NCBI GenBank assembly: GCA_963677595.1
Contig: OY782041.1
Coordinates: 96,001-160,000 of the forward strand
Reading direction: 5' to 3'
Source: Spirochaetia bacterium
GTDB taxonomy: Bacteria; Spirochaetota; Spirochaetia; CAKZLE01
DNA length: 64,000 nt
A program made the position numbers and the translations under genes. Below, piece by piece: positions 47,305 to 53,860 of this stretch. Numbering within the stretch: the stretch's first letter is position 1; every line of letters begins with the position of its first letter. Under the pieces are notes generated by a model, which saw only the letters and a program-made list of their open reading frames with translations, made no database searches and was not told where the DNA came from.

Positions 47305-48690
47305 ATGCAGAGACGGATTGCACAGCTGGTGAATGCGGACCCGACCGACGAGACGTTGGAAGTCGAGGGCTGGGTGCGAACGAAACGTGATTCAAAGAAC
47401 TTCTGTTTCTTCGAACTGAACGACGGATCCTGCCTGAAGAACCTTCAGGTGATCCTTGACAAGACTACCTCAGAACTCTCCGAAGTCATAACCCATATTA
47501 CGACGGGGGCGAGCGTCACCTTCTCCGGGAGACTCGTGGAATCCCCGGGGAAAAACCAGAAAGTCGAGCTACAGGCTTCCGGGGTGGTCCTCCACGGAGA
47601 AGCCCCCGCGGATACCTACCCCCTGCAGAAGAAGCGGCACTCACTCGAGTTCCTTAGGGAGATCGCCCACCTGCGGCCGAGAACCAACACGATCAGCGCC
47701 GTTGCCCGGGTACGGAATGCCTTGAGCTATGCGATACACTCCTACTTCCAGGAGCAGGGGTTCATCTATGTCCATACCCCGATCATCTCCGCCTCCGACT
47801 GCGAGGGCGCAGGCGAGATGTTCCAGGTGACCACCCTTCCCCTGGATGGGATCCCCATAGAGGACGGGCTCATCGACTACTCCAAAGACTTCTTCGGGAA
47901 ACCGGCGAACCTCACGGTGAGCGGCCAGCTGGAAGCCGAGATCTACGCACTCGCGATGAAGAACGTCTACACCTTCGGACCTACCTTCCGTGCCGAGAAC
48001 TCGAACACTGCCCGTCACCTTGCCGAGTTCTGGATGATCGAGCCGGAGATGGCATTCTGCACCCTCGAAGGAGACATGGCTGTGGCTGAGGAGTTCCTCA
48101 AGTACATCTTCACCTATGTGCTCGACCATTGTGCCGAGGATATGGCGTTCTTCAACCAGTGGGTACAGAAGGGAGTCGCAGACTCGCTTCGAGAGGTGAT
48201 CGAGAAGCCGTTCGTCCACCTGACCTATACTGATGCGGTGAAGGAGCTGGAAGCAGCAAAAAAGGATTTCGAGTTCCCGATCTCCTGGGGGGCGGACCTC
48301 CAGTCGGAACATGAGAAGTACCTCACCGAGGAGGTCTGCAAGGCTCCTGTCATCGTGACCGACTACCCGAAGGAGATCAAGGCTTTCTACATGAAGCTCA
48401 ATGACGATGGGAAGACCGTACGTGCCATGGACGTCCTCGTACCGCGACTCGGTGAGATCATCGGGGGTAGTGAACGAGAGGCACGCTACGATGTGCTCCT
48501 GCAGCGCCTCGACGAGCTCGGGCTCGAGAAGAAGGACTACTGGTGGTACCTGGACCTGCGAAGGTACGGGTCGGTCCCGCATGCAGGCTTCGGGCTGGGC
48601 TTTGACCGGGTAGTCCAGTACGTCACCGGCATGCAGAACATCAGGGATGTCATCCCCTTCCCGAGGACTGTCCATAACGCTGAGTTCTAG
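47305..48690 (+). CDS. asnS: Asparagine--tRNA ligase
   Basis: [42 protein letters not shown]. Confidence 0.97.
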
Positions 48691-49135
48691 CATTGGACCT
48701 GCTGGCATAGCCCTGAAGGCGTGAGGTGCTCAGCTGGAACAGACTCTGGATCACAGTAATACGGTCATTGCAGATCTGCCCGCCCGTCTGGATATCGTTG
48801 ACCGGCGGGCTGCCGCAAAGGCTCTATGAGCCTTTGCCTCTCCTAACGAGAGATTCTCCTCTCTACCTCCGATTGAAGAGCTTGAAGACTCCCAATGTAA
48901 TGAAGCCGTATCACAACCGCCCCCCCCAACCTGCGGGGTGCATAATGAGCGTACCTATACCTCAATGTTAATATTTTTGCAGGATACTTTTCACTTGAGA
49001 ATCAGAAACAATTTCGCTGCCTTTCGGAGCTACTTTTCGCTCTCTTTGGGAAGAACCTTCTTTCATAGAGGTTCTTAACAGTTTTATAGCTTTACTACTG
49101 CGTACGATAATATCACGAGAAAAGTAGTATGACTG

Positions 49136-49390
49136 TAGTTGAGAAGTCATAGATGCTATCCTATTCTTGACGGAGAATGGGAACCGGTGATCGTGTAATA
49201 CGTTTTTGTGATGGATGCTGGACTGCCAGACATACCTCAAGAGAAAAGATACACTGACCGGTCATCGAAGACTACTTGGAGACTTCCCGGGGAATTCTCC
49301 CCGGGAATGATCTCAATAATAAAAATGAAGGACATCTACGCACTTCCTGTCATAAAGCTTCCCAACTATCCGTTAATTTAATTTTTGAGG
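49136..49390 (+). ncRNA. Candidate IS110 bridge/seek RNA in the left non-coding end
   Basis: Several hairpins downstream of the junction promoter; short segments matching target and donor. Confidence 0.5.
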
Positions 49391-49398
49391 AGGCTGCC

Positions 49399-50568
49399 AT
49401 GATAGACAGACCTTTACGATTGACGGCAACCAGGATCATCGGCTTGGATCTTTCCAAGAAGACTCTGGTTGGGTGTATGCTGCTAGAAGAAGAAGGGTTC
49501 ATGAAGAACCACTTCTTCGACGAGAAGATGAATGCTCAAGGACGTCAGCGACTCGCTGAACGGTTCAAAGCAGGAGATGCGATCTTCATGGAGGGAGGGA
49601 CCTCTTCCTTCAACCTCGCACGGTATCTGCTGAAGCACACCGAAGCAGACGTGTATGTACTCAACCCTATGAAACTGCATATCATCTTCGAGTCGATCTG
49701 CAAGTCAGATCGGCAAGATGCTGCAAAATTGGCTAAGTATGCACGGGATGCCCACCCTGAGAACTGGGTACTGGTTCCCATCCCGACTGAACAGGAATCT
49801 GCTGAGCGCTCAGTAGTCAAGCTTCACATCGCCTATTCTCAGTATCGTACGAAGGTCATCAACAAGCTTCATGCGGTATTCACAGGAATGGGGTTCCCTG
49901 ACCTGAAGAAATCGGATCTGAAGGATCCTCGCAAGCGACGGGACTGGGTGGAGACCCTGCTCGCCGAGGAGATAGCTCTATTCAGTGCAGGGCTCCTGCT
50001 CGAAGAGCTTGAATCATTGGAGTCGCAGATGGAACGTATTCATGAGAAGCTCAAGGAGATCATTCTCGCTCACCCACGAGAAGCCATAGCATGGCTCTCG
50101 ATCCCTGGTATCGGAGACATCACGGCTGTAACGCTCATTGCCTTCCTCGGTAATGGAGACCGATTCTCTTCTGCTAACCAACTGAGGAACTATATCGGTC
50201 TCATCCCGAAGAAGGATCAATCCGGGACGGTCGATAAGCAGCTTGGGGTCTCTCGTCACGGGTGTATGCCGATCAGGAGGCACATCATGCAGGGAGCTTG
50301 GGGTGTCAAAAAGTTCAGACATGATTGTTCTCTTACTCGGTACTGGCAGCGTCTTGAAAGCCGACGGAAGCTTGGTCAGAAAGCATCAGTTGCCATTGCT
50401 AATAAGATGCTCTCTATCGGATTCGCCCTGCTGAAGAACGGTGACATCTATCGGATGCCTGACGGGGAACAGTATCTGTTGAAGAAGCTGCATTACTATA
50501 AACTTGAAGCTCTCGTCGGAACCCGATCCTGGCAGATTAATTCCGATAAGAGCTCCATAACCAGCTAA
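49399..50568 (+). CDS. IS110-family DEDD recombinase/transposase
   Basis: IIGLDLSK, FMEGG, KSDRQDA (DEDD); SIPGIG...YIGLIPKKDQSG (Tnp_20 Ser). Confidence 0.93.
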   Translation: MIDRPLRLTATRIIGLDLSKKTLVGCMLLEEEGFMKNHFFDEKMNAQGRQRLAERFKAGDAIFMEGGTSSFNLARYLLKHTEADVYVLNPMKLHIIFESICKSDRQDAAKLAKYARDAHPENWVLVPIPTEQESAERSVVKLHIAYSQYRTKVINKLHAVFTGMGFPDLKKSDLKDPRKRRDWVETLLAEEIALFSAGLLLEELESLESQMERIHEKLKEIILAHPREAIAWLSIPGIGDITAVTLIAFLGNGDRFSSANQLRNYIGLIPKKDQSGTVDKQLGVSRHGCMPIRRHIMQGAWGVKKFRHDCSLTRYWQRLESRRKLGQKASVAIANKMLSIGFALLKNGDIYRMPDGEQYLLKKLHYYKLEALVGTRSWQINSDKSSITS

Positions 50569-51061
50569 AGCCTTCCTAACGGTTTTAGCCTATCACTAAC
50601 CACCTCCCCACGCAAGTCCTTATTCTTAAGGTCTCGGAGAATTGTGTCTATTTGAATTGCTAAAATTTTCTTGTTTATACCTCTTGACATCTACAGACAA
50701 ATAAATGATGTAGTTGCCATTGTTATACCTCCCATAAAAAGATCGTAATTAAAATATATGATAGCCATTGCATGGTGTCAATTGGATATTCGTTCTCCAA
50801 TAACACCGGTGTCTCGCAAGTTTCAGCACCACCGGGATCAGGGAGATTCCAGCACATGAACAGTACTCTTTGTTTCTTTTATATTGAGTTCTCACAGCAA
50901 TCAATTTACGTATGAGAATCTCAAAGAGTAACCAGGCTTCGGGCTGGGCTTCGACCGTGTCGTCCAGTACGTCACCGGCATGCAGAACATCAGGGACGTC
51001 ATCCCCTTCCCGAGGACTGTCCATAACGCTGAGTTCTAGTAGACGGCGGAGTCCAGTAAAT

Positions 51062-51283: not shown

Positions 51284-51934
51284 CTAGAGGGTGGTCAGCC
51301 CCATACGCAGTGCGTACTTGGTGAGTCCTGCGATCGAGTGCACATCCAGCTTGGACTGGATCTTCTTCCGGTGGACATCTACCGTGCTCACCGAGATGTC
51401 CAACTTGAAGGATATCTCCTTCGAGGTCATGCCCCGACTGAGGAACTGCAGAACCTCCCGTTCTCGCCGGGTGAGCGGGACCGTCGGGAACCTCTGATTC
51501 CCTGCTTTGTAGATCCGTTCTTCCGCGACGTAGGACGGCAGATACACCGCTCCCTCGAACTGCGCCAGCAGCGCCTGCTCGAACTCCTTGAACGATGCCT
51601 TCTCGAAGAGGAATCCGTTGATTCCATGATCATGGTACATGTCGATCATCATCTCATGATGCTCCTCAATGAGGATCATCGTGCGGATCGCGCACCCGGA
51701 GATGGGGCCGTCCTCCTTCCCCAGCAGCTTAAGAAACTGCTTACATCGTGATGCGGTCTCGAGGAGCGCTGAGGATATGATGATGATGGCAGACTGTACA
51801 TTGAGCTGGCTTTCAGCCAATGCATCCAGATCTTCATAGTAGGCGACAACCTGGAATTCTCCAGATTCTTTGATGAGCCTGAACAGCCCTTCACTAAGCA
51901 GTGACCTGCTCTTTATAAAGATAATGTTTTTCAT
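51284..51934 (-). CDS. LuxR-HTH regulator with degenerate receiver domain (copy 1)
   Basis: LTRREREVLQFLSRGMTSKEISFKLDISVSTVDVHRKKIQSKL; no DD or phospho-Asp. Confidence 0.88.
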   Translation of the reverse strand: MKNIIFIKSRSLLSEGLFRLIKESGEFQVVAYYEDLDALAESQLNVQSAIIIISSALLETASRCKQFLKLLGKEDGPISGCAIRTMILIEEHHEMMIDMYHDHGINGFLFEKASFKEFEQALLAQFEGAVYLPSYVAEERIYKAGNQRFPTVPLTRREREVLQFLSRGMTSKEISFKLDISVSTVDVHRKKIQSKLDVHSIAGLTKYALRMGLTTL

Positions 51935-52003
51935 ATTAGTATTAACCTTTTATTTGTTTGATTTGATTTAAAAATTCTGATCGAATCTTTGTTTTTTTAG
52001 GTT

Positions 52004-52222
52004 CATCGGGAAAACAGCGGGTGTATCTTATTCCTCCTCATCCTATGCTGCCATCCCTTCCCTCCGAGCTGGTCGACCAGCCCGGTATCAATGATCACCC
52101 GGCGGCATCAGCCGCCAGGTCCCATATTCTTCTTGCCACCTGTGGGAGGGAGCAGGTATCTCCTTTACCTCCTGACACCTGCTGTCCTCCCGTTCATGGA
52201 TTTTCGAACAATTCCTATTCTT
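52004..52222 (-). ncRNA. Structured GGA-rich repeat, copy 2
   Basis: Homologous to copy 1, same hairpins. Confidence 0.55.
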
Positions 52223-52876
52223 CTAGAGTGTGGCCAGTCCCATGCGCAGTGCGTACATGGTGAGTCCTGCGATCGAGTGAACATCCAGCCTGGACTGGAG
52301 CTTCTTCCGGCAGTTAATGATCGAGGCCTCCGAGAGGTTCAGCTTGGAACCAATCTCCCTCGAGGTCTTGCCCAGGCTGAGGAGCCGCAGCACCTCCTGT
52401 TCTCGCTCGGTGAGCGGGACCATCGGGAACCTCCGGGGTCCTGCTTTGTAGATCCGTTCTTCCGCGACGTAGGACGGTAGGTATACCGCTCCCTCGAACT
52501 GTGCCCGCAGCGCCTGCTCGAACTCCGTGAACGAGACCTTCTCGAAGAGGAATCCCTTGAATCCCTGGGCATGATACATGTCGATCATTACCTCATGCTG
52601 CTCCTTGATGAGGATCATCGTGCGGATCGAGCACCCGGTGATGGGGCTATCCTTCTTCCCCAGTATCTCAACATACTGCTCACAACGTGATACAGTATTG
52701 AGGATCCTTGAAGATATGATGATGTTGATCGGAGAGCGCACATTGTGCCGGCTTTCAGCGAATGCGTCCAGATCTTCATAGTGTGCGATCATCTGGAATT
52801 CTCCAGATGCTTCGAGGAGCCTGAGCAACCCATCACTGAGCAGTCCCCTGCTTTTTATTAAGATTATGTTTTTCAT
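52223..52876 (-). CDS. LuxR-HTH regulator with degenerate receiver domain (copy 2)
   Basis: Paralog with a diverged recognition helix (LNLSEASIINCRKK). Confidence 0.86.
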   Translation of the reverse strand: MKNIILIKSRGLLSDGLLRLLEASGEFQMIAHYEDLDAFAESRHNVRSPINIIISSRILNTVSRCEQYVEILGKKDSPITGCSIRTMILIKEQHEVMIDMYHAQGFKGFLFEKVSFTEFEQALRAQFEGAVYLPSYVAEERIYKAGPRRFPMVPLTEREQEVLRLLSLGKTSREIGSKLNLSEASIINCRKKLQSRLDVHSIAGLTMYALRMGLATL

Positions 52877-52985
52877 ACTGCTAGTAACCAAGTTTTTTTG
52901 TTGTATTTCCTTTTTTGTGTATCCATCAGGGAAACCCATTCCCCGGGGACTCCCTCCGGCTTCCACAGGTATGTGGCAGCCTTTC

Positions 52986-53206
52986 ATAACGGGAAGACAG
53001 CATGGGTATCTGGTTCCTCCTCGTCCCATGCTGCTATTCCCTTCTCTCCAGGCTGTTCGACCAGCCTGGTATCAATGATCACCTGGCGGCTTCAGCCGCC
53101 AGGTTCCGTATCCTGTTGCCGACTGTGGGAGGGAAGCAGGTATCTCTTTTACCTCCTGACACCTGCTGTCCTCCCGCTCGCGGACTTTCGAACAATTCCT
53201 TTTTCT
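52986..53206 (-). ncRNA. Structured GGA-rich repeat, copy 3
   Basis: Homologous to copy 1; A-U replaces G-C in the third hairpin. Confidence 0.55.
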
Positions 53207-53860
53207 CTAGAGTGAGGTCAGCCCCATGCGCAGTGCGTACTTGGTGAGTTCCGCAATCGTGTGCACGTCCAGCTTCGACTGGATCTTCTTCCGATGGACA
53301 TCGACCGTACTTACCGAGATGTCCAGCCTGGAAGATATCGTCCTTGAGGTCATGCCCTGGCTGAGGAACCGCAGTACCTCCTGTTCCCGCTGTGTGAGCG
53401 GGACCATCGGGAACCTCCGGGGCCCTGGTTTGTAGATCCGTTCTTCCGCGACATAAGACGGCAGATATACCGCTCCCTCGAACTGCGCCAGCAGCGCCTG
53501 CTCGAACTCCTTGAACGATGCCTTCTCAAAGAGGAACCCGTTGATTCCCTGTTCATGGTACATGTCGATCATCAACTCGTGATTCTCCTGGATCAGGATC
53601 ATCGTGCGGATAGAGCATCCGGCGAGGGGACCATCCTCCTTCTTCAGCATCTTGAGATACTGCTCACAACGTGATGCGGTATCGAGGATCGCTGAAGATA
53701 TGACGATGATCAGGGGAGAGCGCTCATTGTGCTGGGTTTCAGCCAACGAATCTAGATCTTCATGGTGTGCGACCATCTGGAATTCACCAGATGTCTGGAC
53801 TAGCTCAATTAGTCCCTCCGTTAGGAGTGACTTACTTTTAATTAATAAAAGTTTTTTCAT
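53207..53860 (-). CDS. LuxR-HTH regulator with degenerate receiver domain (copy 3)
   Basis: Paralog of copies 1 and 2. Confidence 0.88.
   Translation of the reverse strand: MKKLLLIKSKSLLTEGLIELVQTSGEFQMVAHHEDLDSLAETQHNERSPLIIVISSAILDTASRCEQYLKMLKKEDGPLAGCSIRTMILIQENHELMIDMYHEQGINGFLFEKASFKEFEQALLAQFEGAVYLPSYVAEERIYKPGPRRFPMVPLTQREQEVLRFLSQGMTSRTISSRLDISVSTVDVHRKKIQSKLDVHTIAELTKYALRMGLTSL

Follow-up and report, generated by a model that had tools for sequence, protein, structure and literature searches.

The insertion sequence examined here lies within a 64,000-nucleotide stretch of the genome of a Spirochaetia bacterium (the window), and it raises the question of which group of RNA-guided recombinases it represents and by what means its insertion site is chosen. 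An initial annotation had proposed for it a mixed architecture, in which IS1111-like ends accompany a longer structured end upstream of the recombinase gene. Here we report that the locus is very probably a recently mobile insertion sequence of the IS110 superfamily and of the ISLin1 lineage, whose upstream end likely yields a two-loop bridge RNA predicted to guide a DEDD/serine recombinase both to the target and to the joined ends of the element. The ends, the five copies, the empty site, the catalytic residues, the conserved fold, and the guides changing with flanks and with ends are the parts of this reading that were taken from sequence, and the coordinates of the features are collected in Table 1.

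Sequence comparison confirms that the element exists, defines its boundaries precisely and shows that it has moved recently. The genome to which the window belongs (G000) encodes five full-length copies with identical ends in all five, as well as one truncated upstream end and one distant paralogue (L029; protein 45% identical). These shared ends are those proposed by the initial annotation, with an AAA at either side, and the non-coding ends of 275 nt upstream and 137 nt downstream likewise agree with its lengths. Recent movement follows from two copy pairs that are identical end to end, together with the intact catalytic residues. The reading frame of the window copy differs from those of the other four at 37-39 positions, and these four differ from one another at 0-26. 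The suggested search for empty sites was also successful: in X2, a public run from a study other than that of run X1, a contig jumps exactly 1,582 bases at the window site, and in two of the five other family genomes intact 56-codon orthologues of the interrupted gene continue without a gap across the junction and carry one AAA, matching both the empty target and the reading frame that excision had been expected to restore. Removal in silico of the other copies repairs reading frames at three further sites, where frame alone cannot fix a 3-base overlap. A true 3-bp target duplication is ruled out because the empty site retains a single AAA, which leaves no duplication beyond one shared overlap.

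The shared core appears more likely to be AA than AAA, since the left overlap copy of the paralogue L029 is GAA and its right copy AAA, and since both guides overlap on the last two A's. Matching within the core is apparently not strict, because two relatives, L037 and L008, vary within these two positions on the left side. The contigs of run X1 hold the element body with majority-type alleles only, yet join the window flanks to element ends; this run is uninformative on which guides occupy the window site, because two right-end variants at separate depths show that copies had been collapsed. Two left flanks and one right flank in X1 match none of the five sites in G000, which suggests that a close strain has additional insertion sites. 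Among the joins listed for contigs of runs X1 to X5 there was no circle junction, a result that in contigs does not amount to absence, and no RNA data set with the element was among the sequencing runs listed.

The element is a member of the IS110 superfamily, as its recombinase combines the RuvC-like DEDD domain with a Tnp domain carrying the catalytic Ser-Gly. In the alignment, D17, E65, D104, D107 and S275 correspond to the catalytic residues of IS621 and all five are intact, the IS621 reference row (L078) having been checked as IS621 against the solved structure. Relatives at 41-78% identity comprise 147 metagenome matches, and those with a name are mostly Sphaerochaeta-type spirochaetes. 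A single-sequence structure prediction was of low confidence (pLDDT 38) and was set aside.

Table 1. Features of the element and of the gene that it interrupts (positions in the window)
Feature	Position	Strand	Basis or remark
Interrupted 56-codon host gene, 3' part	48968..49123	-	Gapless orthologues
Left AAA overlap copy	49121..49123	+	Likely 2-nt recombination core in its last two A's; core length inferred (L029)
IS110-superfamily element	49124..50705	+	1,582 bp including one AAA overlap copy; five same-end copies, 1,582-base contig skip, gapless orthologues
Predicted -10 box, circle-junction promoter	49125..49130	+	17-nt spacing to -35 in 9/9 clade junctions and ISLin1
Left subterminal inverted repeat	49130..49146	+	13/17 here; 12-16/17 in the same register in eight relatives; compensatory changes in L036, L042
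Predicted bridge-type RNA	49141..49347	+	Closing stems, 5' hairpin (49159-82), target arm with internal loop, donor arm in multiloop
First target guide	49199..49207	+	Reverse complement of core and right flank (top-strand match); covaries with right flanks
Second target guide	49241..49247	+	Identical to left flank and AAA (bottom-strand match); 7/7 to own flank
First donor guide	49270..49277	+	Reverse complement of core and left-end start; 7-nt match
Second donor guide	49317..49323	+	Matches right-end terminus and AAA, 6/7; weak by itself (shuffle p 0.32)
Conserved hairpin, predicted to mask the ribosome-binding site (49387-93)	49356..49395	+	Helix 9; 98.7% of cells paired, no compensatory change
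DEDD recombinase, 389 aa	49399..50568	+	PF01548, PF02371, NF033542 above cut-off
Right subterminal inverted repeat	50683..50699	+	Pairs with left inverted repeat, 13/17
Predicted -35 box (TTGACA)	50684..50689	+	Within right inverted repeat
Right AAA overlap copy	50703..50705	+	Shared ends across copies
Interrupted gene, first five codons	50706..50720	-	Promoter-like site at 50781-50753

The imperfect subterminal inverted repeats recognized by the initial annotation are modest by themselves (shuffle p 0.012) and proved to be conserved in the eight relatives that have both ends present, with compensatory changes in two of them. Their reported offsets of 6 and 3 nt are counted with the AAA left out. 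The IS1111-like spacing itself holds, because the distance from the innermost CA to the TG across the junction, counted by the published IS1111 rule of 7 bp on the left and 3 bp on the right with no duplication (PMC11187229), is 12 nt in the window clade and 12 nt in IS5075; the innermost pair of the element's repeats is mismatched. The promoter that had been predicted to arise from the joined ends is conserved at the level of sequence, its -35/17-nt/-10 geometry being kept in all nine window-clade junctions that were built (the window and eight relatives) and in ISLin1, and the L029 junction has a perfect TATAAT. At 14 of 19 target sites, which are kin and non-independent, a C is located five bases left of the AAA (binomial p ~1e-5 at 25%). 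This C occupies the position of the last C of the right inverted repeat in the donor and is absent from the guide; a preference for G at +8 on the right side is weak (6/14). The inverted repeats are likely read by the protein, and the C described above would be one such contact.

Structure predictions indicate that the upstream end likely folds into a two-loop bridge-type RNA. Its fold is more stable than that of shuffled sequences (z -4.97), and 16 of the 65 consensus pairs show compensatory change across 11 sequences, the structure being derived from that same alignment. The donor-arm stem (helices 7-8) is conserved with compensatory pairs and repeats the layout of the target loop, and the most variable stretches of the upstream end are both sides of the first loop. 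A search of this RNA against Rfam gave two matches, both at chance level. An antisense RNA would pair equivalently; the predicted junction promoter and the orientation of the gene point to the plus strand.

Comparison of guides with flanks suggests that the element likely uses an RNA guide to choose its insertion site. For the second target guide against the left flanks, the permutation p is 0.005 (17 sites, 7 guide classes; kin, non-independent), and this guide also fits in L002, L003, L029 and ISLin1. For the first guide against the right flanks, p is 0.015 in a fixed register (12 sites, 8 classes; kin, non-independent) and 1e-4 when a 1-nt shift and wobble pairs are allowed. The right-guide matches are loose, as 4 of the 12 sites match at 0-2 of 7 positions in the fixed register and need the 1-nt shift. 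When the first guide is instead taken as identical, rather than reverse complementary, to the right flank, the permutation p is 0.94. The guide positions were chosen after viewing the G000 copies, many guides are A-rich, and the relatives are kin. The counts omit L039 (the site of L037), L045 (which is without an upstream end), loci without the relevant flank or guide, and L038 and L043, the apparent duplicates of L037 and L032. From alignment A1 the row c2379 was removed on account of erroneous coordinates.

Within G000 the guides of the window copy match their own site at 4/4 and 4/7 positions and the other four sites at 0-1/4 and 1-2/7, and the majority guide matches the window's site at 0/4 and 2/7. 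Counted together with the core, the window guide forms 6 standard pairs and 2 wobbles over 9 positions on its own site. An error of assembly is an unlikely source of the window guides, because run X2 contains a window-type fragment that spans the second guide with zero differences. Natural retargeting between related elements has been published (PMC11187229). The truncated copy (G000 C1:253791-253963) carries a third target-guide pair without a recombinase gene; this truncated upstream end could provide a target loop in trans.

Taken alone, the donor matches are near chance (p 0.05 and 0.32, joint 0.016). In L002, L003 and L029 the first donor guide changes in concert with the sequence of the left end, and the same three loci contain a segment resembling the second donor guide. 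In both loops the top-strand match comes first, which is the order of IS1111 and the reverse of IS621; according to PMC11187229, IS1111 RNAs have the top-strand match first and the order is reversed in the IS110 element tested there.

The best named relative of the recombinase is ISLin1 of Leptospira interrogans (NCBI 'IS110-like element ISLin1 family transposase'), with 157 bits versus 83-87 for ISHvo9/10, 51-59 for core IS1111 and 53 for IS621. Trees of the kind that the initial annotation had recommended, sampling 24 reference rows, place the window clade as sister to ISLin1 with support of 100/99 in 38 rows and 98/98 in 26 rows, outside the 100/100 core IS1111 clade. The link of the clade to core IS1111 is unstarred in the free trees (94/89 and 82/81). 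Joining the clade to core IS1111 without ISLin1 was rejected (p-AU 0.026; 26 of 38 rows, LG+G4), and joining the clade together with ISLin1 to IS110-type rows was not rejected (p-AU 0.31; 26 rows), the free trees placing the clade elsewhere. An RNA model built without ISLin1 finds all three ISLin1 upstream ends (E 0.005-0.008), the ISLin1 ends being defined from uninterrupted repeats in L046. Among the other 28 loci searched with this model the sole match below E 0.5 is the genome's own truncated copy, and there was no match in five core IS1111 loci with one close relative or in the ISHvo9/10 loci. At L046:1-440, an ISLin1 is inserted in a short tandem repeat, with a second partial copy directly upstream.

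ISLin1 resembles the element in its long upstream and short downstream end, imperfect subterminal inverted repeats, the same -35/-10 at the junction, a 3-nt end overlap, a homologous 5' hairpin and target arm, and a top-strand guide that comes first. Its guides track its own flanks and its second donor match is present, with its first donor guide not identified by eye. It differs in its protein (~28% identical, 357 aa versus 389 aa), its overlap (AGA rather than AAA), its CA-to-TG distance (13 nt rather than 12) and a much shorter downstream end. With the IS1111 family (IS5075/IS4321, ISEc11, ISKpn4, ISPa11; seekRNA) the element shares subterminal inverted repeats at the 7+3 geometry, the top-strand match first, the GL-P----SG motif, and donor guides located in a multiloop, a feature described for many RNAs of the family. 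In contrast to that family, its RNA is upstream rather than downstream, its recombinase falls outside the core clade and has 389 aa rather than 330-350 aa, and its repeats are less perfect (13/17 including an inner mismatch, rising to 16/17 among relatives, versus 11-13 bp that are perfect or nearly so). Like IS621/ISCro4 of the IS110 group, whose RNA is termed bridge RNA, it has an RNA in the upstream end behind a predicted junction promoter, a target loop followed by a donor loop, a likely 2-nt core in all guides, and DEDD and serine residues; unlike them, it has the opposite guide order in both loops, inverted repeats of 17 bp rather than 2-3 bp, and a distant protein (E ~1e-13).

The mixed architecture is upheld, in that IS1111-like end geometry and guide order occur with a predicted RNA at the upstream end. 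On these sequence comparisons, RNA position and clade set the element apart from the IS1111 family, inverted repeats and guide order set it apart from the IS110 group, and it belongs with ISLin1. The combination of upstream RNA, subterminal inverted repeats and IS1111 order is not unique, as the catalogued ISLin1 has the same layout. Published exceptions on the IS1111 side are ISMtsp17, ISHvo10 and ISAcp5, with an upstream or an upstream and downstream non-coding region (PMC11187229); that paper (Siddiquee et al. 2024) mentions a small number of IS1111-type elements with an upstream non-coding region and names ISMtsp17, which differs from our element in being described inside the tight IS1111 cluster. 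Movement of the RNA between element ends has been proposed (PMC11208160). Searches of the openly available full-text literature yielded no paper on the RNA of ISLin1 or on an RNA that is upstream and follows the IS1111 order. An upstream RNA for ISLin1 may already be recorded in Supplementary Table 5 of PMC11208160, which relates RNA location to phylogeny. Related literature includes PMC13626964, PMC12288879, PMC3789691 and bioRxiv 2025.05.14.653916.

The surroundings of the element provided several further observations. The last 107 bp of asnS are repeated at 48584-48690 and 50933-51039 (103/107 identical), bracketing 2.24 kb that include the element; this whole repeat-bounded stretch is absent from an X2 contig and has the appearance of what is left of an island that had integrated at the 3' end of asnS. 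A Pfam search with the interrupted 56-aa protein gave no match. In G003 (locus L087), the orthologue of its gene is followed by a 145-aa ORF whose product looks similar, by eye, to a GNAT acetyltransferase, suggesting a small toxin-antitoxin-like pair with the partner missing at the window. On the minus strand, 51284-53860 contains three LuxR-type regulator genes in tandem, and units of ~230 bp are repeated in the intergenic regions. Elsewhere in G000, the copies at C1 226794 and 2593633 are inserted within the first eight codons of genes, whose starts resemble those of a pyridoxamine-phosphate-oxidase-like protein and a HipA N-terminal protein. The paralogue at L029:1171-4010 (G000 C1 about 2,615,250-2,618,090) is a complete element of the same design, and its downstream end contains, on the opposite strand, a 383-aa ORF that encodes a zinc ribbon and probably represents a nested insertion sequence.

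It is highly improbable that the guide matches reflect chance, with A-rich sites chosen by the protein alone. The core and many guides are A-rich and the right-side matches are imperfect, but the permutation preserves composition and still favours the own guide-flank pairs, and non-A guide changes follow the flanks in the window copy, L003 and L029 and between ISLin1 copies. A different explanation, which bears on the reprogramming claim alone, is that the distinct guides of the window copy arose outside this genome, in a sister element that arrived with the asnS 3'-end island and was already in place; we give it close to an even chance. The 37-39 differences of the window copy's reading frame, against 0-26 among the other four, agree with such an arrival, as do the flanking 107-bp asnS repeats and the absence of the whole stretch from an X2 contig. 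The empty site in the small gene and the window-type fragment, both found in X2, indicate on the other side that element and site move separately in nature, and the window guides match the window site under either origin.

Two further alternatives concern the donor loop and the ancestry of the element. The RNA could act in the manner of a seekRNA, in which the target loop alone matters, the protein recognizes the ends via the subterminal inverted repeats, and the donor loop is either not needed or removed by processing. This is improbable: the repeats are long with compensatory changes, each donor match is weak individually, and for ISEc11 and ISEc21 short RNAs with target matches are reported to suffice (PMC11187229), but three different left-end sequences are each accompanied by a change in the first donor guide, and the donor-arm stem is conserved with compensatory pairs in the same layout as the target loop. 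As for ancestry, the element may instead descend from the IS110 group with independently lengthened inverted repeats and a convergent likeness to IS1111, a history that we consider possible but doubtful and that is compatible with the preferred mechanism. The upstream position of the RNA, a protein longer than the 330-350 aa of IS1111 (PMC11187229) and the tree uniting the clade and ISLin1 with IS110-type rows at p-AU 0.31 fit this history, as does the source FASTA of PMC11187229, where ISLin1 stands in an alphabetical run with ISLhe4 and ISLxx2, this being the order of the run and not a group assignment. Guide order and end spacing, both IS1111-like, speak against it, and so do the free trees, which place the clade on the IS1111 side with the unstarred support given above.

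Under the preferred reading of an RNA-guided element of the ISLin1 lineage, the element would circularize, and its joined ends would form a sigma-70-type promoter transcribing the RNA and then the recombinase. Loop 1 would pair first on the top strand, to the right of the AA core, and next on the bottom strand, to its left; loop 2 would pair likewise on the circle junction, and strand exchange would take place at the core without a true target duplication. Compared with IS621, the orientation in which the RNA reads the two DNAs would be reversed, in the manner of IS1111 RNAs, though the RNA is placed like that of IS621. The circle and its promoter, the pairing of each loop and the strand exchange are modelled by analogy with IS621 and IS1111, whose mechanism and guide order have been published (PMC11208160, PMC11208158, PMC11187229). 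The IS621 chemistry on which this model draws is being revised in its turn, because a 2026 preprint makes the case for excision of a single strand by IS621 and for its tolerance of half matches (bioRxiv 2026.08.31.748434).

A tentative and rather unlikely extension is that the ISLin1 lineage constitutes a third, undescribed group of bridge recombinases, intermediate on the path from IS110 to IS1111, in which the donor site has flipped relative to the RNA and long inverted repeats have been gained with the RNA still upstream. If this extension is true, guide order would be tied to the inverted repeats rather than to where the RNA lies. The lineage would then provide a natural system that combines a co-transcribed, two-loop RNA having IS1111 polarity with an A-rich core and with a base that the protein reads beyond the guide, and three target specificities in near-identical copies on one chromosome. 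The impact of the element itself is moderate, because exceptions in RNA position, natural retargeting and tens of thousands of mined bridge RNAs (32,190 in bioRxiv 2026.10.21.760802) have already been published. The element separates RNA position, inverted repeat length and guide order, which the two founding papers treat as linked. Here the order goes with the inverted repeats, which bears on the origin of IS1111 from IS110 and on the use of the donor loop by IS1111-type RNAs; with all parts resolved to the base and natural guide variants at hand, the donor-loop question would be directly testable.
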